From the NCBI GenBank assembly GCA_964475125.1, contig CAYYWP010000004.1:1-60438 (forward strand): a stretch of 60,438 nt of DNA. Reading direction: 5' to 3'. How positions within the stretch are numbered: the stretch's first letter is position 1; each line of letters starts with the position of its first letter. Below the pieces are notes generated by a model that saw only the letters and a program-made list of their open reading frames with translations, had not been told where the DNA came from and made no database searches. Source of the stretch: an uncultured Candidatus Binatia bacterium. GTDB taxonomy: Bacteria; Desulfobacterota; Binatia; HRBIN30; CADEER01. The translations under genes and the position numbers were made by a program. Shown here in pieces: positions 1 through 59,189 of the stretch.

Positions 1-106
1 ACCCGGCCCACTCGGCCCAACGTCCCCTTCCCTTCACCCTTCCCCCCCGAGCCGGTCGCCATGTGGAGTTGACCGCCGCGCGCGTGCGGAAGTAGGGTCG
101 GCCCCT

Positions 107-5110: not shown

Positions 5111-6204
5111 TGCGACGGCTGGCGTGCGCGGCACTGCTCATACTGTCCGCCTGCGCGACGGCACCGCCGGTGCCGTCCGTTCCGTCCTTGCATGACGCCA
5201 GCGGCGCCGGCGTGGCGATCGACGACGACGAACGCCGCCTCTGGGAGCGGGCGAAGGAGGAGCGGACAGAGCTGGCCGAGAAGGATCTGTTGGTGAACGA
5301 CCAGGCGTTGAACGCCTACTTGCAGGCGGTGTTGAACGGCCTGATGCCGACGCCGCTGCCCGAGCCCATTCCGAAGCCCGCGGTGTACGTGACGCGCAGC
5401 TCCGCGCGCATCGGCGGCGCCTTCGCCGACGGCGGCATCTGGGTCACGGTCGCGATGCTGGCGGCGATCGAGAACGAGGCGCAGCTCGCGGCCTTGCTCG
5501 GCCACGAGCTCGGCCACTTCACCGCTCGCCATCAGCTCATCGCGGCTCGTTTCGCCGCCACCAATGGCTCGCTGGTCGACCGCATGGAGCTCTCTCGCCA
5601 ACAGGAGAGCGCCGCCGACCAGTATGCGCTCATGGCCATGCGCCAGGCCGGCTACGACCCGCGCGAGGCAATGAAGCTGCTCGCTTTGGCCGGGGCGGAG
5701 GAAGAGGAGTGGTCGCCGGGGACGGAGGTATTTCGCAGCCATCCGTTCACGGCGGAGCGCATCCGCGATCTGAACGCCGCCATCGCCGCGGGGCACGATC
5801 AGGCCCTGCGCGTCGATGCCGAGCGCTACAACCAAGCGATCGCGTCGGTGCTTCCGCTCGCCGCCGAGGTCGAATTGAAGGCCGGCCAGCTCGATCGGGC
5901 CAACGCCTCGATCGCGCGCTTGCTCGCACTGCAGCCGCAGAACGGTCGTGCCTACTACCTCAAGGCTGAGCATGCCCGCCTGACCGAACGCGACGGGCGC
6001 AACTCGGCGCCGGCTCGCCAAGCCTACCAGCGCGCCGTCGAGCTGGCGCCGAACGATCCCGAGGTGGTCCGGGCGCTCGGGTTGCTCTACCAAGGCGACG
6101 GCAACATAGCGGCGGCAACGCCGCTGCTCGAGAAGTACCTGCAGCTCGCGCCGGACGCGGCCGATCGAAAACTGATCGAGCGCTACCTCGGCCGCCGTCA
6201 GTAA
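5110..6204 (+). CDS. M48-family zinc metalloprotease lipoprotein with C-terminal TPR-like repeats (BepA-like architecture)
   Basis: In-frame ATG at 5110 gives MRRLACAALLILSAC (lipobox). HELGH zinc motif (LLGHELGHFTARH). The C-terminal third is TPR-like (AYYLKAEHARL, AYQRAVELAPNDPEV, LLEKYLQLAPD). The 4816..5109 extension in the track is Arg/Pro-rich and not credible. Confidence 0.8.
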   Translation: MRRLACAALLILSACATAPPVPSVPSLHDASGAGVAIDDDERRLWERAKEERTELAEKDLLVNDQALNAYLQAVLNGLMPTPLPEPIPKPAVYVTRSSARIGGAFADGGIWVTVAMLAAIENEAQLAALLGHELGHFTARHQLIAARFAATNGSLVDRMELSRQQESAADQYALMAMRQAGYDPREAMKLLALAGAEEEEWSPGTEVFRSHPFTAERIRDLNAAIAAGHDQALRVDAERYNQAIASVLPLAAEVELKAGQLDRANASIARLLALQPQNGRAYYLKAEHARLTERDGRNSAPARQAYQRAVELAPNDPEVVRALGLLYQGDGNIAAATPLLEKYLQLAPDAADRKLIERYLGRRQ

Positions 6205-7592: not shown

Positions 7593-7734
7593 CTTCGAAT
7601 CTCCTCTGGCGTTACCGGTTGGGGTCTACCGGCGGGACCCACTCACCAGCGCGAGCTTGGCCCCGCCGCACGGTTGCGTCAAGCCCCAGCGCGGGAACCG
7701 AGGCCTCTCAGCCCGTTGCGGCACAAGCACTTCC

Positions 7735-7765
7735 CGCTCATCCTGAGCCCGTCGAAGGATGAGCG
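7735..7765. repeat. REP-like hairpin, family A (CGCTCATCC-TGAGCCCGTCGAA-GGATGAGCG)
   Basis: Perfect 9-bp stem with a 13-nt loop. The loop is the complement of the TCGACGGGCTC loop found at 27458 and 43716. Intergenic. Confidence 0.8.
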
Positions 7766-7844
7766 CGGCCTTTCTCAACGGATTGCTATCTCAAATCTCA
7801 TCGACCGGCGGACAGATGACTGCCAGCTGAGCGCGTGCCGAGGC

Positions 7845-9896: not shown

Positions 9897-9933
9897 CGCA
9901 TCCCTCCGTCGCAGACGGTGCATACCAGACCGG

Positions 9934-10034
9934 GACGTCGGTTCCGAGTGTTCCGCCGAGTTGGTCCCGGCAGGTGAGAATCAGGGCGCCAGGCCGTCGA
10001 AGAAGACGAACTCGGAAGACTCGGAACCTACGTC
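9934..10034. repeat. Inverted-repeat element, family B (GGTTCCGAGT-TTCCG-AGTT arms)
   Basis: The left arm is 9934..9962 (gacgtcggttccgagtgttccgccgagtt). It pairs with the right arm 10009..10034 (aactcggaagactcggaacctacgtc) with few mismatches. Lies in a divergent intergenic region. Confidence 0.7.
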
Positions 10035-10120
10035 CCCTCTGGTGAGCCGCGAAGTCCGCATGTCGACCGGGGATGGCGGATCGGTCTAGTCTTTCGGCAA
10101 CCCCACCCCCCCGGCCCGTG

Positions 10121-26286: not shown

Positions 26287-26435
26287 CGGCAGCGCCTCCG
26301 GGAGCGGGCCGCTGACCGACGGGGCATCGCCGGATGTTTGCCGCTGCGCGCGTCTCGCCAGTAGCCAACCACGAAGGATATGCTACGGGTGACGGACGAA
26401 ACGGTCCAGGACGGGGACGAGATCGAGGGAGCAGT

Positions 26436-27218
26436 GTGAGCAGTACGGCAGGTTCGTCCGAGGCGGGCATCGCGCAGGTGCTGCGCCTCAAATACGGGGA
26501 CCCGCCGACGGGCTGGGGCCCGCTGCTGCACCAGCGCTTCGGCTACCGGACACCCGATGACCTGTACGAGGCCGCGGTGGCAGAGCTGGTGACTCCGGGC
26601 TGCGCGTGGGCCGACATCGGCTGCGGCCATGAGCTGTTCCCGAGCAACCGAGCCCTCGCGCGCCTGCTTGCCGCCCGCGCCGGCCTGCTCGTCGGCGTCG
26701 ACCCCGACGCGACCATCGAGGAGAACCCCTACGTCCATCGCAAGGTGCGTGTGACGCTCGCGGACTTCCAGCCGGACCGGTCCTTCGACCTCGTGACGCT
26801 GCGCATGGTGGCCGAACACCTCGCCGACCCGGAGGCGGCGGCCGCGGCGCTGGGGCGTATCGTGCGGCGGGGCGGCACCGTACTCATCTACACGGTCAAC
26901 CGCTGGGCGCCGGTCTCGCTCGCGGCGAAGTGCGTGCCCTTCCGCTTGCACCAGCCGATCAAGCAGGTGCTCTGGGGCACGCAGGAGCAGGACACCTTCC
27001 CCACCTACTTCCGCATGAACACGCGGCGGCAGCTGCGTGCGCTGCTCGACCGCCACGGCCTCCGCGAGGTCTCCTTCCGCTACCTCGATGACTGCCGCAC
27101 GCTGCAGCGCATCCGCTTGCTCGCCCGCCTCGAGCTGATCACCTGGCGCGTCCTGCACGCCGTCGGCCTGCCCTACCCCGAGACCTGCCTGCTCGGCACC
27201 TATCGGAAGGGGACGTAG
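26436..27218 (+). CDS. Class I SAM-dependent methyltransferase
   Basis: Start placed at GTG 26436, 5-6 nt after GAGGGA. Motif I-like WADIGCGHE. VAEHLADP post-motif II block. Confidence 0.65.
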   Translation: MSSTAGSSEAGIAQVLRLKYGDPPTGWGPLLHQRFGYRTPDDLYEAAVAELVTPGCAWADIGCGHELFPSNRALARLLAARAGLLVGVDPDATIEENPYVHRKVRVTLADFQPDRSFDLVTLRMVAEHLADPEAAAAALGRIVRRGGTVLIYTVNRWAPVSLAAKCVPFRLHQPIKQVLWGTQEQDTFPTYFRMNTRRQLRALLDRHGLREVSFRYLDDCRTLQRIRLLARLELITWRVLHAVGLPYPETCLLGTYRKGT

Positions 27219-27328
27219 TTTCAAGTGTTCCGAGTTACCCCCCACGGGCCCCAATGCGGCCATTCCGGGGAGGGGGTCGGCCATGACGGAACGCTCGGAA
27301 GCCATCCTTGATCTGACAAAACCTCAAC

Positions 27329-27540
27329 GCAGAGACCCAGAGTACGCAGAGGACCCGGAGGCTGCGTGCATGAGTTCGAGCGCTGACTCATGGTCATCGT
27401 CAATTGGGTCTGGGGGTCAATCTCTCGCAGGATGCTGAACAACCCGCCGCTCACCCTTCGACGGGCTCAGGGTGAGCGGAACCGCGGGTTTTTCAGCATC
27501 CTGCTCGACCCTCGTACTCCGCGTTCTCTGCGGTCTCCGC
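27329..27540. repeat. Composite nested palindromic element: outer family C arms, inner 76-nt palindrome carrying a family A hairpin
   Basis: The outer arms are 27329..27355 (gcagagacccagagtacgcagaggacc) and 27510..27540 (ccctcgtactccgcgttctctgcggtctccg), in inverted orientation. The inner palindrome is 27428..27503 (caggatgctgaa..aacccgc..gctcaccct / agggtgagc..gcgggtt..ttcagcatcctg), with core hairpin 27449..27477. Confidence 0.75.
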
Positions 27541-39137: not shown

Positions 39138-39276
39138 CCACAGATGAACACGGAGCGCCCATCCCCCATTCGGCCCCCGCTGCCGATGAACACAGTGCGA
39201 CCCATCCCTCTCTTCGGAGATCGAGCGCCTTGTTTGTCGGCGAGGTGGCAGGTGGGGGCTCCGTGTTCATCTGTGG
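39138..39276. repeat. Inverted-repeat element, family D (CCACAGATGAACAC core)
   Basis: Perfect 19-bp terminal inverted repeats, ccacagatgaacacggagc (39138..39156) and gctccgtgttcatctgtgg (39258..39276), separated by 101 nt. There is an internal partial copy gatgaacac. Confidence 0.85.
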
Positions 39277-43531: not shown

Positions 43532-44563
43532 GTGTCGTTCGCGCTGCGCTGTGTCACCGCCGCCGAGGAACAGGCGTGGAACGACCGCCAGCTCGCCACA
43601 CCGGTCACTGCCCCGCGCCTGGCGTTCTGGACGTATCGCGACACGGCCGTCGTGGTCGGACGGTCGCAGCGCCACGGTGCGGGCACCGACTGTCCCGCCG
43701 CGTTCCGCTCGCCCTTCGACGGGCTCAGGGCGAGCGGAACGCTCGACGGCGGATGTCCCTTTCCGCTCGCGCTGAGCCCAGCCAAGCATGAGCGCGCGCT
43801 GCTTCCACCGCCTGCTAGCCCTTTCCTGCTCACGCTGAGCCCCCCCAAGCATGAGGGCGCGCTCCTTGCACCGCCCGCTAGCCCTTTCCCGCTCATGCTG
43901 AGCCCGTCGCAGCATGAGCGCGCGCTCTTTCCACCGCCTGCGAGTCCTTTCCCGCTCATGCTGAGCCTGTCGAAGCATGAGCGCGCGCTTTCTCGGACGC
44001 CTGCTCGGGTGCCGATCGTTCACCGCCGTTCCGGCGGTGGCGCGGTGCTGGTCGGGCCCGAGGTGCTCGGCGTGTCCGTGCTGCTACCGCTGGAACACCC
44101 GTTCGCCGTCTCGGGACTCGTGTCTTCTTATGAATGGTTCGGATGCGCGCACGCGCGCGCCTTGCGGCGCCTGGGAGTGCTATGTGAGGCCGTCAGCCCC
44201 AAGGCACTGCCCCGCGCCGCCGCCGACCCGATTGCGGCCTGGGCTTGCTTCGGTGCGGTATCGCCGTGGGAAGTCGTGACACTCACCGGTCGCCGCAAGC
44301 TCGTCGGCCTGGCCCAGCGGCGCACGCGCACCGGCGTGCTGCTCGTCAGCGGCACTTTGATCGAGGACCAGCGATGGGACGTCCTCTGCGATGCCCTCGG
44401 CCAGTCGGTCGAAGCCGCCGCCATCCTGCGGGGATCGACATCGTCATGCCGCCGCGAGCTCGGGAAGTCGATCGCCGTCGCCGACGTCGCCCGACGGGTT
44501 GCCCGCGAGCTCGACGTCGCACTGCGCTTCGAGATGCCACCCGGCGCGCAGGGCGAGCCGTAG
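43532..44563 (+). CDS. Lipoate-protein ligase family protein (BPL/LplA/LipB catalytic domain) carrying an approx 100-aa in-frame repeat-derived insertion
   Basis: GTG start. Landmarks VVVGRSQ, HRRSGGGAVLVG and GRRKLVGLAQRR (catalytic Lys context). Residues between the first two landmarks are encoded by the repeats at 43702..44007. The stop codon lies inside the 56-bp repeat 44555..44610. Confidence 0.7.
   Translation: MSFALRCVTAAEEQAWNDRQLATPVTAPRLAFWTYRDTAVVVGRSQRHGAGTDCPAAFRSPFDGLRASGTLDGGCPFPLALSPAKHERALLPPPASPFLLTLSPPKHEGALLAPPASPFPLMLSPSQHERALFPPPASPFPLMLSLSKHERALSRTPARVPIVHRRSGGGAVLVGPEVLGVSVLLPLEHPFAVSGLVSSYEWFGCAHARALRRLGVLCEAVSPKALPRAAADPIAAWACFGAVSPWEVVTLTGRRKLVGLAQRRTRTGVLLVSGTLIEDQRWDVLCDALGQSVEAAAILRGSTSSCRRELGKSIAVADVARRVARELDVALRFEMPPGAQGEP
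43702..43740. repeat. REP-like hairpin, family A, inside a coding sequence
   Basis: gttccgctcgccct-tcgacgggctc-agggcgagcggaac: perfect 14-bp stem, 11-nt loop identical to the loop at 27458..27468. Confidence 0.85.
43756..44007. repeat. Tandem array of four 63-nt family-A-related hairpin units inside a coding sequence
   Basis: Units start near 43756, 43819, 43882 and 43945. Units 3 and 4 keep perfect stems (cgctcatgctg..cagcatgagcg). Units 1 and 2 are decayed. The period of 63 nt equals 21 codons. Confidence 0.9.
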
Positions 44564-44610
44564 CCGTGGAACCCGTGCCCGCCGGCAGCGCCGCGCGCTG
44601 CCCGGTGGGG
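44555..44610. repeat. 56-bp GC-rich palindromic element, family E, copy 1
   Basis: gagccgtagccgtggaacccgtgcccgccggcagcgccgcgcgctgcccggtgggg is 53/56 identical to 56951..57006. It contains the stem ccggcagcgc/gcgctgcccgg. Both copies lie at gene 3' ends. Confidence 0.85.
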
Positions 44611-47600: not shown

Positions 47601-50102
47601 ATGAACGGTGCGGTGACCGACCAGCTTGCCGGCGGCCTCACTTTCGTCACCGGTGGGAGCTGGACGCAGACCCCGCCCGGGTATTTCGCCATCACCAAGA
47701 ACAGCGTCTTCGTCGGCTCCACGCAGCCCGACAATCCTGACGCGGCGCCGATCGGCCCGGCCGTGTGCCCGAGCCCGACGCCGTCGACGACCTGCGCGCA
47801 AGCCTGCAGCGGCGGGGTCTGCCCGTTACCGGCCGATGGCATCGGCCTGTTCACCGGCGGCCTCAATCCGAAGCGCATGATCAGCATCTACGACGGGCCG
47901 TTCTACGCCGACGGCACGGTGTTCACCGACACGTCGCCGTTGACGTGCAACACGACGGGGCCGGCGCCGTACAACGACCCGAACGGTTGCCAGATCTACT
48001 CCTCGACTACTCAGCCGGAATACCAGAATCCGAACCCGACTCCGGGCGCGACCCCGCAGCCGCAGATGAACGTCGTCAATGCGGCGGTGGGCTGGAAGCA
48101 GCCGAACGGCTTCTATTATCCCCCGGCATTCGCCTTCCGGAAGTCCGCCTTCGATACCGCCACCTTCCGCCACAACGTCATCGATCAGTACGCCAACTAC
48201 TTGCAGGGGTCGCTGGCGGCTCCCGACTGCACGACGACGCCTTCCGGATGCCCGGCGCGCTTCGTGCCGCTCGGCGAGACGTACCCGGGCATCACGCCGA
48301 TCGACTTCTCCACCATCCTCAACGACATGGACGGCAGCTTGACCGGCTGGGTGCCGCAGGGCGGCACGCGCACTTCCTCGGTGAGCAAGAACGTCTTCTT
48401 CGACGCCCCCTCGCAGGATGCCGAGTGCCAGTCGTTCGGCGTGCAGACCGCGCCCTACGAGTTCGTGTCTTCGGTGATCGCCCCGCTCGGCGGTACGAGC
48501 CCGAATCAATACGTCGACCCCACGGTGTGGGGGATCGCCAACCTCCCCGCGGTGCCGATCTACCGCCAGCTCGCCCTGCCGGATGACCAGTGCCTGGGCG
48601 ACCAATCGGTGTGCTGCGCCCCCGGCCAGCAGGACTGCCCGGTCGGCACCGTCGGCTGTACGCGCGCCAGCTTCATGCTCGGCGGCCAGAACGGCCAGGC
48701 GCCGTACCTCACCTCGAACAACGGCGTCTACTACATCGACACCAACAAGCAGGAGGACAACCCGAGCTGCTTCATGCAGGCGCAGGTGTTCGAGCCCGGC
48801 TTCGCGGCCGATCAGTCGTACGTGCTCTACAACCTGTTCGCCAACGAGAACACCAAGGTCACCTATCAGCTTTACGTCGGCGACGGCTTCCAAGCCTCGG
48901 CCGGCCAGTGGGTGTTGGTGCAGCCGCATGTCTTCAGCACCTCCTCCGGACAGGGCGGCAATGCCACGGTGGTCACGCCCATCACCGATGCGCCGACGCT
49001 CGCCACCCTGAACGCCGGCGTGAGCGTGAGCAACGGCATCCTGCAGGTGGTCCTCAATCACTCCGCCATCGCCGACGACTATCTGTTCTCCAGCCGTCCG
49101 GACTACGACGTCTGCCTGCCGCGCGATATCTGTCAGATCGACACCAGCTCGCCGACACCGACCTCCTGCACCATCCAGGCGCAACCCAGCTTCCTCGACG
49201 GCAACGCTACCGACTACGCCGACTATCAGGCCGCCGTGACCGACATCTGCGAATACTGGGCGACTGCGACCGCCGGCCGCACCTCGCTGCCCAACACGCC
49301 GGGCGACGATGCCGACGATCCGATCTTCGCCGACTGTCCCACCGGCGGCTGCCTCGGTTACGCCTTCACCCTGCCGTCGAGCTTCACGCCCATGCCGTAT
49401 GCGGCCGTCGCGCCGACGCCCGGCTGCTTTGAGGCAGGCACCTGGAACATCTCGATGAGCTCGATCGACCCGGACTGCCCGACGCCGGCGCCTCCCGATC
49501 CCAGCGCGTTTTGCTCCGGCGGCACGCCGACGCCGACGCCAGGGACGCCCGGCGCGACGCCGACGGCTACGGCGACGAACGGCCAATTGGCTACCGCAAC
49601 TGCGACCGGTACCGGACCTGCCGCCACCGAAACGCCGACCGTTCCGCCAACCACGGCGGCCGCGACCGCGACGGCAACTCCCGGGATCGCGACGCCGACT
49701 CCCACCGGGTCGCTTCCGGAAGCAACCCCTACTCCGACACCACTCACGACTCCGACCGGCTCGCTCGTCTGGGTCTTGAACGGCAGCACCACCACGGCGA
49801 CGCTCACCGGGATATCGACCAGCGGCACGACCTATACGCAGGGGCAGCTCGCGCTGCAGGACGCGCAACAGCGCTTCTGCACCGCGACCGGAACGTTCCC
49901 GGTCCTCCAGGTCGTCGTCTCCTCGACCGACCTGCAAACGATCGGCCTATTCCCGGTCACCAGCATGGAGACCGTCGGCATCAGCGCGCTTCCCGCCGTG
50001 TCGGCCGGCACCTACGACGTGCAGATCCAGACCTTCCCCGGCTGCGACAGCACCAAACCGCCCATCTTCATCACTATGCCCAGCGCGATCATGTACGAGT
50101 GA
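44670..50102 (+). CDS. Giant lipoprotein (approx 1810 aa): two He_PIG-type Ig-like domains, a G8 domain, a CEMIP/TMEM2-like parallel beta-helix core, a long Cys-rich region, a Thr/Pro linker and an unknown C-terminal domain
   Basis: - Start: ATG 44670 or 44691 gives the signal LLAALAALGLAAC (lipobox). The 44391 start in the track is an Arg/Ser-rich artefact that overlaps the previous gene.
- Ig-like repeats: about 44796..45054 and 45087..45342 (TATDAEGDRLVYSSTALPANA... / SATDPENDRITFSVHPALPPNA...).
- G8-like region: about 45444..45675 (VNVAEGGQLIFLDDGGTIDFRVSSMLVEQGGSVQAGS...KLKIGLWG).
- Core block: GRMGHYPMHFHL...SIWDSMNRFVVLHASHGITVARNVGFLSIGHAYYLEDGSEIEN (about 46680..46880). It parallels the LGRYPIHFHL...GHCFFTEDGPEE block I recall from CEMIP. 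Confidence 0.8.
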   Translation: MTDGRSEMRRVSGGRIGLLAALAALGLAACGGGGGKSPTPGAPVLDPIEDQQIEPTRSLVLALTATDAEGDRLVYSSTALPANAALVPSTGLFVFTPDASQAGTSQTITFTVSDGEQEDHERVRIRVTRSVPPTNLSPDLAPIGDHTVRAGSTLTLQQSATDPENDRITFSVHPALPPNATYDSHTGRFTFAPSAAQKGTYPFSFVASDGNSADYETVHIAVTDGDTPCAVSTPAGCAPLPTATPSTPAPPSATPATPPNLVITNQCYTVSSGSYTYNYVNVAEGGQLIFLDDGGTIDFRVSSMLVEQGGSVQAGSLECPFGSADGKLKIGLWGTDPTQQGTVLSPTPAGITCVGTTMNPGECFDPALTESPHYCMEPDPSGTWSPSDPCNVTLPSDQQQANGNALFEGYDALNFDYGENYFGYKVFAVSYGGSVQFFGRKGVADADLSPTPPTTCDTPENQYDVNQWAALSGSSWARLDQTVSAGQTMVTLDRPVDWEEGDQVVVATTDWYPSHSELMEVQSASTTGGQTTLTLDGQFSYAHNGQTYAVPETLRTNAGNPNTEVELRAPVGLLTRSIVIYSLGETPDQPFPSPPSGNEQPSQEWLNCSYANNGATPSPAATPSATPSATSSPTVAPHPECYFGGHVIVRQGFGTFQAQGVEFRQLGQGGRMGHYPMHFHLAKSTDYTDAFLKDSSIWDSMNRFVVLHASHGITVARNVGFLSIGHAYYLEDGSEIENLLCHNLAVSVRGALNEFFAAQPVQDPSYRFVPPILDATEEEAGGTCAFGGDTLLPTAFWTMNTWNELVGNAASGVYGFGSCYWLLGSGVSGPSNSPDFTWSKNTDSPADYADFNLAGTQQAPLKRFRGNSCSSAGYGLQSTLQIEPVGNTPLLTGFTPSTNPYLTNNPTQFDRPMVTGNYLPVKYGTNPSCASGYPEESQFASNPDYCVTTVIDRFTTSFNRAGANFAAVWLRPEWFVFMNGAVTDQLAGGLTFVTGGSWTQTPPGYFAITKNSVFVGSTQPDNPDAAPIGPAVCPSPTPSTTCAQACSGGVCPLPADGIGLFTGGLNPKRMISIYDGPFYADGTVFTDTSPLTCNTTGPAPYNDPNGCQIYSSTTQPEYQNPNPTPGATPQPQMNVVNAAVGWKQPNGFYYPPAFAFRKSAFDTATFRHNVIDQYANYLQGSLAAPDCTTTPSGCPARFVPLGETYPGITPIDFSTILNDMDGSLTGWVPQGGTRTSSVSKNVFFDAPSQDAECQSFGVQTAPYEFVSSVIAPLGGTSPNQYVDPTVWGIANLPAVPIYRQLALPDDQCLGDQSVCCAPGQQDCPVGTVGCTRASFMLGGQNGQAPYLTSNNGVYYIDTNKQEDNPSCFMQAQVFEPGFAADQSYVLYNLFANENTKVTYQLYVGDGFQASAGQWVLVQPHVFSTSSGQGGNATVVTPITDAPTLATLNAGVSVSNGILQVVLNHSAIADDYLFSSRPDYDVCLPRDICQIDTSSPTPTSCTIQAQPSFLDGNATDYADYQAAVTDICEYWATATAGRTSLPNTPGDDADDPIFADCPTGGCLGYAFTLPSSFTPMPYAAVAPTPGCFEAGTWNISMSSIDPDCPTPAPPDPSAFCSGGTPTPTPGTPGATPTATATNGQLATATATGTGPAATETPTVPPTTAAATATATPGIATPTPTGSLPEATPTPTPLTTPTGSLVWVLNGSTTTATLTGISTSGTTYTQGQLALQDAQQRFCTATGTFPVLQVVVSSTDLQTIGLFPVTSMETVGISALPAVSAGTYDVQIQTFPGCDSTKPPIFITMPSAIMYE

Positions 50103-50151
50103 GCCAGCAGCCTGACGCTTGCAGGTCATGCCGTGGGCGGAGGAGGAAGGT

Positions 50152-50273
50152 ATGCCGGCGACCAAGATCGCGGTCAGCGTGCCGAGTGATCTCAGGTCGA
50201 GCGTATCCGGCGTCGCAAGGGAGTGACGCGCAGCGCCGCGGTCGAGAGCGGGCCGCGCGCCCATCGGGCGTAG
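50152..50273 (+). pseudogene. Frameshifted ribbon-helix-helix gene remnant
   Basis: GGAGGAGGAAGG precedes ATG 50152. MPATKIAVSVPSDL stops after 24 codons. The continuation VERIRRRKGVTRSAAVE (typical RHH helix region) is readable only from 50196 in another frame. Confidence 0.4.
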
Positions 50274-50282
50274 GGAAGAGAT

Positions 50283-51444
50283 GGGGACGTAGGGCCGGGG
50301 AGGCCGGGTGTGACGGACTCACCGTGGATCGGATCTGCGCAGCCAGTGCGTGCAGCGAGTGCGAAGTGAAGGGTCCTCGGCTATCCGTAACGGATGCCGC
50401 GGGGTCCGCGTCTCGATTTCAGTGGCGCCCTCCATCACGTCATCGTCCGCGGTATCGAGCGCGGGCGCATCTTCCGTGACGGTCGCGACCGCGCCGAGTG
50501 TCGCGAGCGGCTGGGCCGGGCGCTTCGTGACGGCGGCGCGGCGCTGTACGCTTGGTGCTTCATGCCCAACCATGCCCATGCGTTGGTGCGCACGGGGGCG
50601 GTTCCCCTCTCGCGGGTGATCCAGCGCTGGCTCGGTCACTACGCGGTGCGCTTCAATCTCCGCCATCGACGCGCCGGTCATCTGTTCCAGAATCGCTTTA
50701 AGAGCACCCTGGTCGAGGAGGAGCGGTATTTTCTCGAGCTGGTGCGCTACATCCACCTCAATCCTGTCCGCGGGCAACGGCCGCTTGTCACGCTCGACGG
50801 GCTGGACAACTACCGCTGGAGCGGGCACGCAGTCTTGCTCGGTCGCCAGAGTTTCGCGGCGCAAGACACGGACTTCGTCCTGCGGCAGTTTGCTGCCCGT
50901 GCCGGACCAGCGCGCAGTGGCTACCGCGCCTTCGTGCGCGCCGGAAACGGTCGGCACGCGGCGCTTGACCTGGACGGCGGCGGGCTGCGGCGCAGCGCCG
51001 GCGGTTGGTGGATGGTGCGCGTGCTGGCACGCGGCCGTGAGCGTTGGGCGCACGACGAACGGGTGCTCGGCGACGGCGAGTTCGTCAATCGCGTCGTGCG
51101 CGAATCGATCAGTGCCTTCGCCCCGCCAGCGGCGAATCCGGCAGAGCTCGTGACCAACCTGTGCGGCCGATTCGCCTCGCGGTTCGCCCTCACCCCGGCG
51201 GAGGTGGCTCGGCCGAGCCTGCGCGCCCCCGTGCTCGATGCACGTGCACTCGTGAGCGAGGCGGCCGTGCGCGAGCACGGTCTGCCCCTGACCACAGTCG
51301 GACGGCAGCTTGGCGTGTCCAAGCAGAGCATCGCTCGCGCCCTTCTGCGCGCTGCCAGGCTGCGCCACGGGCGATGACAGACCGCGGAGGCATACGCGGG
51401 TTGGCGCTCTATCCTCACCCCGGCCGACCCGGCCCTACGTCCCC
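50283..51444. mobile_element. RAYT-type unit: HUH transposase gene bracketed by 17-18-bp perfect inverted repeats
   Basis: ggggacgtagggccgggg (50283..50300) is the exact reverse complement of (c)cccggccctacgtcccc (51428..51444). Confidence 0.7.
50394..51377 (+). CDS. IS200/IS605-type Y1 HUH transposase, REP-associated (RAYT-like), with a C-terminal DnaA-domain-IV-like HTH
   Basis: MPRGPRLDFSGALHHVIVRGIERGRIF. HUH motif HAH at 50571..50579 (FMPNHAHALV). Catalytic Tyr context LVRYIHLNPV. C-terminal LPLTTVGRQLGVSKQSIARALLRA. Confidence 0.85.
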   Translation: MPRGPRLDFSGALHHVIVRGIERGRIFRDGRDRAECRERLGRALRDGGAALYAWCFMPNHAHALVRTGAVPLSRVIQRWLGHYAVRFNLRHRRAGHLFQNRFKSTLVEEERYFLELVRYIHLNPVRGQRPLVTLDGLDNYRWSGHAVLLGRQSFAAQDTDFVLRQFAARAGPARSGYRAFVRAGNGRHAALDLDGGGLRRSAGGWWMVRVLARGRERWAHDERVLGDGEFVNRVVRESISAFAPPAANPAELVTNLCGRFASRFALTPAEVARPSLRAPVLDARALVSEAAVREHGLPLTTVGRQLGVSKQSIARALLRAARLRHGR

Positions 51445-51517
51445 TTGTGGTACCCCCCCCTACGTCCCCTTGTGGTACCGCCCCTTGTGGTACCCGCTAC
51501 GTCCCCTTGTGGTACCC
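51435..51517. repeat. Tandem short repeats (CTACGTCCCCTTGTGGTACC, 3 full units plus 1 partial)
   Basis: Full units at 51435..51454, 51460..51479 and 51497..51516. Partial unit at 51481..51495. They immediately follow the right inverted repeat of the RAYT unit. Confidence 0.85.
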
Positions 51518-51762
51518 GCCAGCGGATCCTCGCCGCGCTCGAAGGCCAGGTCGTTGACGTGTTCGTCGGCGAAGGTGTTGTAGGTCTCCGGTGAGCCGGT
51601 GGCAGATCACCTGGAGGGCGCCGCGGCCCACCAGGGCCGGTCTTCCGTGCCGACTCTGGACACGGCACGCCTCTCGGTGCCAGAAAGTACCCTTCGGGTC
51701 GGGCCGTCAGGCCGGCCCGGCCACCCACGACAGCGCGACCACATCACCAAGGAGGAGCGAAG

Positions 51763-52233
51763 GTGAAGATTACCGTGACGGTAAACGGCGAGCGCCACGA
51801 GGACGACGTGCCGCCGCGCTTGTTGCTCGTCCACTGGCTGCGCGAGCAGCTGGCGCTGACCGGCACGCACATCGGCTGCGAGACGACGGTGTGCGGGGCT
51901 TGCACGGTGCACCTCGACGGCCGAGCGGTGAAGAGCTGCACGATGTTCGCGGTGCAGGCCGACGGCCGCGCCGTGACGACCATCGAAGGCCTCGGCGGCG
52001 ACGAGCTCCACCCGCTGCAGATGGGCTTCTGGGAGAAGCACGGCCTGCAGTGCGGCTACTGCACGCCGGGCATGATCATGACCGCCGCCCAGCTCCTGCA
52101 GGACGATCCGGATCCGAGCGAGGAGGCGATCCGCGCCGCGATCGAGGGCAACATCTGTCGCTGTACGGGCTACCAGCAGATCGTCGACGCGGTCCAATAC
52201 GGCGCCGCGCTGGCACGGGAGAAGCGCTCATGA
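51763..52233 (+). CDS. (2Fe-2S)-binding small subunit of a Mo-hydroxylase (CoxS-like)
   Basis: GTG start after AAGGAGGAG. Cys clusters [11 protein letters not shown] and [10 protein letters not shown]...[10 protein letters not shown]. Confidence 0.9.
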
Positions 52234-56928: not shown

Positions 56929-56950
56929 GCGGGGAACGAGCGACCGCGAC

Positions 56951-57006
56951 GAGCCGTAGCCGCGGGACCCGTGCCCGCCGGCAGCGCGGCGCGCTGCCCG
57001 GTGGGG
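56951..57006. repeat. 56-bp GC-rich palindromic element, family E, copy 2
   Basis: 53/56 identical to 44555..44610. Starts 23 nt after the stop of the RidA-triple gene. Confidence 0.85.
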
Positions 57007-57134
57007 CGGGGCCCGGCAACGGTGCGCCGGACGCAGGAGTCCAGCACCGGCGGTGATCCTCCGGCGACATTCCCCGCCAATCCCGGACGCACGCATCGCG
57101 CGGGCACAATACGGCGCGCCCCGCCTCTCCGCGC

Positions 57135-57427
57135 GGCGCACGCCGTGCGCCCCGACGCGGAATGGATGTGTGCCACGCGTGCCGACACGACTCGCGCCGT
57201 GGGTTCCGACGCACCGCGCGCCGCACGGGGCAATGTGGTGTGCCCGCCGCCCCCCCCCGCCGGGCGCACGCCGTGCGCCCCTACGCGGAATGGATGTGTA
57301 CCACGCGTGCCGATACGACTCGCGCCGCGTGGGCGCGTGCCGTGGGCCCTTCACGCGCCCACCGGATTGGGGCACGGCGTGGGTTCGGGGTGCTACCTGC
57401 ACCGTAGGGGCGCACGGCGTGCGCCCG
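57135..57427. repeat. Family G repeats (GGCGCACGCCGTGCGCCCC-ACGCGGAATGGATGTGT.CCACGCGTGCCGA.ACGACTCGCGCC): two direct approx 70-nt copies plus one inverted partial copy
   Basis: Copies at 57135..57203 and 57263..57333 (128-nt period, few mismatches). The inverted core ccgtaggggcgcacggcgtgcgcccg lies at 57402..57427. The core GCGCACGCCGTGCGC has 6-bp self-complementary arms (GCGCAC / GTGCGC) around a central GCC. Confidence 0.85.
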
Positions 57428-59020: not shown

Positions 59021-59189
59021 CGCTAGTGTCCTGAGTCCGAAATTCGCTGCATATCTCGGCGAGGCATCGGCGGCCCTGGCCAGGCGGCCGACGCAGGAAT
59101 ATCTGGCTATATTCCGAGGAGGCCAACGCCGCCAGGGGCGCTGAGGACCGCCGCGATATGCAGCGAATTTCGGACTCAGGACACTAGCG
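59021..59189. mobile_element. 169-bp MITE with perfect 35-bp terminal inverted repeats
   Basis: cgctagtgtcctgagtccgaaattcgctgcatatc (59021..59055) is the exact reverse complement of 59155..59189. CTAG sits at both ends. There is no coding capacity. The right arm contains the stop codon (59184..59186) of the EEP gene. Confidence 0.9.

Follow-up and report, generated by a model that had tools for sequence, protein, structure and literature searches.

The stretch of DNA considered here, the complete 60,438-nucleotide contig CAYYWP010000004.1 of an uncultured Candidatus Binatia bacterium (assembly GCA_964475125.1) and in the following called the window, contains a gene for a 327-residue Y1 HUH transposase that is enclosed by inverted copies of a short motif and trailed on its right side by a tandem array. 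The organism has been encountered in metagenomes from sand filters, biofilters, bioreactors and drinking water, the runs X1-X4 mentioned below coming from sand filters and biofilters. Genes related to those of REP-associated tyrosine transposases (RAYTs; REP, repetitive extragenic palindrome) and flanked by terminal inverted repeats were described as TIRYTs, and the complete units as TIRtrons, by Di Nocera, De Gregorio and Rocco in 2013 (PMC3733652). The locus is of this already-known kind, a well-preserved TIRYT/TIRtron. Its first reading as a RAYT, given in an earlier note on the same DNA, was close and needs refinement with respect to the inverted repeats, the subclass and the tail types.

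The earlier note had seen in the gene product a RAYT-like HUH tyrosine transposase with a helix-turn-helix (HTH) domain resembling domain IV of DnaA, and this view is borne out by domain, residue, fold and profile data. The Pfam family Y1_Tnp (IS200-like transposase) matches residues 14-121 (2e-10), and the catalytic positions correspond to H60-A-H62 (nt 50571-50579) and to Y119 within the segment RYIHLNP (nt 50748-50750 for the tyrosine). In an alignment of 30 relatives the motifs N59-H60-x-H62 and Y119-x-H-L-N-P are invariant, and conservation spans the full protein including the middle region (GGGLRRS..GGW..GRExW..DERxLG) and the C-terminus. The single 327-residue sequence gave no C-terminal match in Pfam; among the 30 relatives, Bac_DnaA_C was matched by 17, HTH_23 by nine and HTH_28 by two. 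The family profile aligned with DnaA domain IV of 2z4r with an E-value of 2.7e-4 and with 4er8 with one of 0.05. An AlphaFold model calculated from the 30-sequence alignment reached a mean predicted local distance difference test score of 81.6. Its top fold match in the Protein Data Bank is E. coli TnpA_REP with a bound REP hairpin (4er8; E 1.3e-5, target template modelling (TM) score 0.70), followed by the TnpA structures of ISDra2, IS608 and IS200, and its C-terminal helices superimpose on the DNA-binding domain of DnaA (3pvp) with a TM score of 0.67 and a root-mean-square deviation of 2.0 Å over 78 columns.

The left repeat, GGGGACGTAGGGCCGGGG, occupies positions 50283-50300 and is separated from the start codon by 93 nt. 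Its complement follows 50 nt past the stop codon (51428-51444). The flanks had been regarded as perfect inverted repeats; exact complementarity holds over 17 nt and is lost at the 18th base, and the full inverted repeat comprises 26 nt with 24 matches (50283-50308 versus 51419-51444), by which the bracketing of the gene by inverted copies of its own motif is confirmed. Single-strand folding of the repeats of the window gave z-scores of -1.7, -0.8, -0.7, +1.7 and +1.1 relative to shuffled sequences and hence no significant hairpin. A REP hairpin model was tried and rejected: the 4-bp GGCC-N5-GGCC stem that three copies could form performs no better than in shuffles and is absent from copies of the TTCCGAGT type. 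The flanks are terminal inverted repeats and not REP palindromes, by which the RAYT reading of the earlier note is refined. Rfam and tRNA scans found nothing. At the left border, a metagenome contig (X2 and X4) parts from the window exactly at position 50266, the start of a degenerate outer copy of the head (Table 1), and continues as TCCCGTGGCAACGCCGGCAGTCGATTCCCC; this continuation has no match anywhere in the window. The departure may reflect a strain variant or a rearrangement at the left border of the element.

Metagenomes contain thousands of relatives of the transposase, about 337 residues in length. The names RayT or transposase are attached to several of them in the source records, and one originates from a Candidatus Binatia metagenome-assembled genome. 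Two relatives, L001 and L005 (61% identity), show the same flank layout as the locus. For 80 more distant loci (38-57% identity), the best upstream/downstream inverted repeat was sought in each without an assumed motif. A strong inverted repeat was present in 58 of the 71 loci with enough flanking sequence, and 57 of these 58 contained GGACG. Within the head of the repeat, GGGACG is invariant, the fourth G is found in 77%, the following position is T in 79% or C in 19%, and the later bases vary. As judged from these alignments, the family-conserved head is GGGGACG(T/C), followed by a lineage-specific tail. The GTAG present in the head of the repeats studied here is a lineage trait, because the bases after the invariant ACG vary among the relatives.

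The tails often hold two tandem direct repeats offset by 8-9 nt (Table 1); repeats with at least 7 of 8 matches at this offset were found in 28% of the tails versus 5% of shuffled ones. The tail type tracks the protein lineage, and tail similarity correlates with the similarity of the HUH, middle and HTH regions with Spearman coefficients of 0.56, 0.54 and 0.58, respectively, the partial correlations being similar. A second recurrent property is the position of the left repeat relative to the gene. The head lies exactly 57 nt 5' of the start codon in 24 of 51 loci, many of them from low-GC relatives, and of 51 loci, 16 have a TTGA[CT] box at the inner edge of the left repeat versus 2 at that of the right repeat. 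In low-GC lineages carrying this box, the sequence pattern suggests overlap of the repeat with the promoter and autoregulation, and the 57-nt spacing in the relatives L125-L204 suggests near-leaderless transcripts. In L134, inspection by eye located a TTGACA about 35 nt before the start codon, a distance at which a leader or a ribosome-binding site would hardly fit or not fit at all.

Additional repeats accompany some of the related genes. L210 has four extra copies within 6 kb, and L144 contains a second inverted pair (GGGACGTTGGTGCAGAG...) at 5512 (+) and 6607 (-). Its two members are separated by ca. 1.1 kb and lie 1.8 kb away from the first TIRYT gene; they probably mark another TIRtron, differing in its tail, at the same locus. 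A motif census of reference-genome contigs with the pattern GGGGACGTAGGKKCCGRG was uninformative: essentially all 119 returned matches were chance occurrences in coding DNA with no homologous gene nearby, the pattern being too loose.

The motif is also dispersed over the window, as the earlier note had noticed. GGGGACGTWG occurs seven times versus 0.30 expected, and none of 100 shuffles reached seven. The related copies mentioned there are real and lie at 16-27 and 10026-10037; further ones are present at 27209-27236 and 9929-9964. The latter was recovered with a sequence-only model (R1, alignment A2) built from 11 high-GC repeats, with which the window was scanned without filters. The scan found the five known copies and, as a new one outside the training set, 9929-9964 (+) with 17.3 bits and an E-value of 3e-4. 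Apart from the two ends of the gene, three repeat sites exist in the 60 kb: the contig start, one clear doublet and one solo copy. At the contig start the read depth is 11 versus 5 beyond the copy, and in X3 two unitigs begin with the copy and then diverge. A search to the left of the contig start yielded nothing but 31-nt overlaps; the element body of this copy, if there is one, would lie beyond the contig. The gene-less doublet has tails of the TTCCGAGT type and lies in the intergenic region of two divergently oriented genes, one luciferase-like and the other encoding a GT4 glycosyltransferase. It is the TIRYT counterpart of a REPIN. In the solo copy, the TAG forms the stop codon of a methyltransferase gene (26334..27218), and a decayed partner may exist ca. 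75 nt downstream at about 27283-27318 (-), which was recognized by eye in the alignment and missed by R1. Most dispersed copies carry tails of the TTCCGAGT type, as does L005; the gene's own ends are of the GGCCGGG type and the contig-start copy is intermediate. As side observations on word counts, GGGGACGC, an alternative form of the head, is absent from both strands (median 6 for 8-mers of the same composition, lowest 3%), and GGGGACGT occurs twice outside the repeats (median 3 for permutations of the same composition); both values are too weak to interpret.

The tandem array at the right end was described correctly in the earlier note as three full copies and one partial copy. The unit CTACGTCCCCTTGTGGTACC is found at 51435-51454, 51460-51479 and 51497-51516, and the partial unit CCCCTTGTGGTACC at 51481-51494. 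Within the unit, GGTACCACAA is similar to the sequence that flanks the ends of the doublet on the outside (CACCAGAG, TACCAGACC). Comparable junction arrays, composed of outer flank, head and part of the tail, are present in the relatives L197, L160, L127, L143, L152 and L169; in L180, stacks of five full repeats are present on either side, and short microhomologies are visible at the unit borders in the sequences of several relatives. Since similar reiterations recur in relatives, the array is a family trait of the junction and not a conserved set of binding sites. An interpretation of the TGTGG-containing array as DnaA-box-like sites for the HTH domain was considered and rejected, the non-head part of the unit differing locally among relatives. 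The array may have arisen by slippage or by repeated nicking and rejoining.

The copy number of the element was judged on the 60 kb of the window and on metagenome depth. In run X1 the unitig depth is 5.6-6.9 over the element and 5.4 over the left flank, with unitigs crossing both repeats into the flanks, and element depth equals flank depth in four runs. No second homolog of the transposase is encoded in the 60-kb contig. Among the relatives, identical versions of three of the proteins, found on 4, 5 and 3 contigs (12 altogether) from different samples, always had the same neighbours. Based on the depth, the lack of an empty site in the metagenome runs (see below) or of a second homolog, and the constant neighbours, the family behaves as fixed single-copy genes and not as a proliferating insertion sequence (IS). 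The single-copy status assumed in the earlier note is upheld; many identical copies of the 1.16-kb unit were not encountered, and the flank motif is enriched outside the element. Next to the locus, the contig depth rises up to 150-900x at 51948-52081 over a short part of a CoxS-like [2Fe-2S] gene, likely owing to cross-matching of a conserved motif from many metagenome organisms and not to a feature of the genome.

Table 1. Positions of the TIRYT gene, its ends and the related repeat copies in the window, with examples of tail units. R1, repeat model described in the text; aa, residues.
Feature	Position	Strand	Description
TIRYT gene	50394..51377	+	Y1 HUH nuclease, ca. aa 10-125; middle region, aa 130-240; DnaA-domain-IV-like HTH, ca. 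aa 245-327
Left terminal inverted repeat	50283..50308	+	Head GGGGACGTAG, then tandem 9-nt units GGCCGGGGA and GGCCGGGTG; R1 26.7 bits
Right terminal inverted repeat	51419..51444	-	Minus-strand reading GGGGACGTAGGGCCGGGTCGGCCGGG; R1 30.2 bits
Degenerate outer head copy GGGCGTAGGG	50266..50275	+	17 nt outside the left repeat; read from the sequence
Tandem array	51435..51520	-	Right-end outermost ca. 20 nt (GGTACCACAA + GGGGACGTAG), reiterated as three complete units and a partial one
Right-end-type copy GGGGACGTTGGGCCGAGTGGGCCGGGT	1..30	-	25/28 match to the right repeat; R1 29 bits
Gene-less inverted doublet	9929..10039	.	111 bp, heads outward; 9929-9964 (+), 17.3 bits, and 10007-10039 (-), 28.9 bits (R1)
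Solo copy GGGGACGTAGTTTCAAGTGTTCCGAGTT	27206..27238	+	R1 24.4 bits; motif part 27209-27236
Tail units, window			GGCCGGGGA, GGCCGGGTG
Tail units, L005			TCCGAGTTG, twice
Tail units, L137			GTTGAC, twice
Tail units, L161			ATTAAACT, twice
Tail units, L202			GACAATTC, twice

Several other repeat families exist in the window; for the hairpin family and the GTAG palindromes described next, nothing was seen that links them to the transposase gene, no test having been aimed at such a link. A separate hairpin family, CCGCTCATCCTGAGCCCGTCGAAGGATGAGCG, is represented at 7731-7786, 27448-27479 (-), 43706-43737 (-) and 43757-44004, and includes a 63-nt tandem array of 3.7 copies (43757-43989) just 5' of an open reading frame (ORF) of 1903 residues. 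GTAG-headed palindromes of classic appearance, CGTAGGGGCGCACGGCGTGCGCCCG, form an intergenic cluster at 57114-57427 with a perfect 25-nt inverted pair (57261-57285 / 57403-57427) and an 86-nt direct repeat (57114-57199 / 57242-57327); the window contains no classical RAYT gene. A 57-nt direct repeat (44554-44610 / 56950-57006; 95% identity, 12.4 kb apart) has one copy near the start of the 1903-residue ORF and the other in the intergenic region beside the GTAG palindromes. Two more inverted repeats were noted at 59021-59061 / 59149-59189 (41 nt, 98% complementarity, 87 nt apart) and at 39138-39168 / 39246-39276 (31 nt, 87%, 77 nt apart).

On the basis of these data we consider it quite probable that the locus is a TIRtron, consisting of a single-copy TIRYT gene of subclass 2.1 (a TnpA_REP-like Y1 HUH enzyme) and its cognate terminal inverted repeats, and operating by the mechanism proposed below, the class being set by published descriptions. 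According to these descriptions, TIRtrons share a GGGGWSAS motif and similar distances between repeats and gene, and give rise to moderately abundant repeat families including dimers and clusters (PMC3733652). Most TIRYTs were placed by Quentin et al. in 2018 into subclass 2.1 of the TnpA_REP-like proteins, whose C-terminus resembles Bac_DnaA_C, HTH_23 or HTH_28, the Bac_DnaA_C-like form being borne by subgroup 2.1.2 (PMC6006769). The locus agrees in the Y1 HUH/Tyr core being nearest to TnpA_REP, in the long protein with a C-terminus of the Bac_DnaA_C/HTH_23/HTH_28 kind, in flanking terminal inverted repeats that begin with GGGG, are similarly spaced from the gene and lack REP hairpins, and in the moderate abundance of the repeat copies with occasional dimers or clusters. 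The tandem 8-9-nt tail repeats, the reiterated outer junctions, the 57-nt spacing to the start codon and the -35-like box are not mentioned in the passages of PMC3733652 and PMC6006769 that were consulted.

In a classical RAYT/REPIN system, a domesticated TnpA_REP would read GTAG-guided hairpin REPs in single-stranded DNA and spread REPIN doublets. Its biochemistry is established: TnpA_REP recognizes single-stranded REPs, uses GTAG as guide and cleaves at CT (PMC3333891, PMC3479197, PMC8266576). Both systems (4er8; PMC3116915) have in common a single-copy gene between inverted cognate repeats, a short conserved head motif and gene-less doublets, the one in the window measuring about 110 bp; TnpA_REP is the top structural match, REP_Tyr_transpos (NF047646) the sole NCBIfam match, and the head in the window does contain GTAG. 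However, this NCBIfam match covers residues 6-126 only and scores 58.7 bits, below the curated cut-off of 80, and the protein is ca. 160 residues longer, i.e. about twice the length of TnpA_REP, the extra part including the DnaA-like HTH domain. Moreover, the repeats are non-palindromic, fold no better than shuffles and in their TTCCGAGT-type copies lack even the 4-bp GGCC stem; GTAG is not conserved in the family, the apparent copy number is low, and Quentin et al. report that no REP-like sequences were found near subclass 2.1 genes (PMC6006769). A classical RAYT identity, as initially assumed, is therefore improbable.

A second explanation regards the protein as a DNA-binding or nicking factor that was recruited by the host and has ceased to be part of a mobile element; the repeats would serve as operators or recognition sites in a cellular task such as regulation or replication-linked processing, and the dispersed copies would be the regulon or targets of the protein. 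The loci are indeed fixed and vertically stable, conservation is strong along the whole 327-residue protein, a -35-like box adjoins the left repeat in many relatives, and for the DnaA-type domain a targeting to replication forks has been suggested by Quentin et al. (PMC6006769). Against this, the catalytic HUH and Tyr residues are invariant, and the repeat copies, which occur singly, as doublets and as stacked arrays in a variety of settings and in one case overlap the stop codon of a gene, resemble transposition debris rather than a regulon, so that we judge recruitment by the host to be unlikely. An ordinary autonomous IS of the IS200/IS605 type (IS608, ISDra2) that multiplies in the genome as a complete 1.16-kb unit would share the HUH-Y1 fold, the presumed 5'-phosphotyrosine chemistry and the absence of an evident target-site duplication, and could account for a transposase gene between matching ends, for the start of the contig inside a right-end repeat copy, for metagenome contigs of some relatives that end at or near repeats and for the second repeat pair of L144, but is very unlikely in view of the flank-like depth with unitigs through both ends, the lack of a paralog in the window, the constant neighbours of the identical proteins in 12 contigs and the different organization of these elements, which are multi-copy, have unlike same-strand subterminal hairpins instead of inverted repeats as ends, encode a TnpA of ca. 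130-150 residues without HTH and are often associated with tnpB, no tnpB-like ORF adjoining the transposase gene here in the ORF list.

The relationship of the TIRYT to DnaA is confined to the C-terminal ca. 80 residues, which share the fold of domain IV (3pvp, 2z4r, 1j1v). DnaA domain IV reads 9-bp boxes, and the tails of the present repeats hold units of 8-9 nt. In contrast, the tail units GGCCGGGNN are unlike the DnaA box TTATNCACA, and neither AAA+ nor other DnaA domains are present in the protein. Quentin et al. left the role of the DnaA-like domain open, since the head does not resemble a DnaA box (PMC6006769).

For the TIRtron we propose the following mechanism. By analogy to TnpA_REP and IS608 TnpA, Y119 together with an HUH-bound metal would nick one strand at or beside the invariant head and form a 5'-phosphotyrosine link; this position is favoured because the invariance of the head parallels that of the catalytic core. 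The variable tail would set the specificity of each enzyme; as the tails form no hairpins, the HTH domain probably reads them as duplex DNA. The enzyme would rarely move its own gene and, as RAYTs do with REPINs, would mainly mobilize short repeat-bounded segments in trans. Repeated rounds of nicking and rejoining at the outer junction, or slippage on the template there, might have left the tandem array as a by-product. Where the left repeat abuts a -35-like TTGACA, as in many low-GC relatives, binding would in addition lead to repression of the gene; the window has no predicted promoter of this kind. More generally, TIRYTs might form a separate branch of Y1 HUH enzymes which read their ends as duplex, versus the hairpin-and-guide principle of IS200/IS605 TnpA and RAYTs. 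In this tentative and rather doubtful scenario, the HTH domain on two 8-9-bp units would position the nuclease on GGGGACG and repress the promoter in many lineages, and the outer arrays would be nicking scars.

Several observations speak against the TIRtron assignment or its mechanism. The head GGGGACGT fits six of the eight positions of the published consensus GGGGWSAS, and the same six-of-eight agreement holds for the form GGGGACG(T/C) found here and in 57 relatives. The gene may not be the mobilizer of the dispersed copies, most of which have the other tail type; because the tail types differ, these copies may answer to another paralog elsewhere in the genome. A direct sign of movement is missing, as eight metagenome runs contained no empty site, no extra copies, no second context of the element and no contig that skips it. 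A promoter and terminator scan of 50100-51800 found nothing, and no sigma-70-like promoter was predicted between the left repeat and the start codon. With regard to the reading of the ends, the tail correlation is equal for the three protein regions, so that nothing singles out the HTH domain as the tail reader, and the 8-9-bp period does not match a helical turn. Finally, we found no experimental work on any TIRYT in the literature, the known biochemistry being that of the classical TnpA_REP only, and which strand is cut, where it is cut and what the HTH domain does are inferred.

For this genome alone, the identification of the TIRtron is ordinary annotation. Its meaning lies with the family, as TIRYTs are abundant, with thousands of relatives, yet constitute the least understood branch of the RAYT/IS200 superfamily. 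The results bear on the question raised in 2018 of what the DnaA-like domain binds. Together with the about 60 compared relatives, the locus provides concrete material for a first biochemical test of the TIRYT class, and the invariant head, the tail of tandem units, the natural 111-bp doublet and the junction arrays define the oligonucleotides and mini-elements for such assays.

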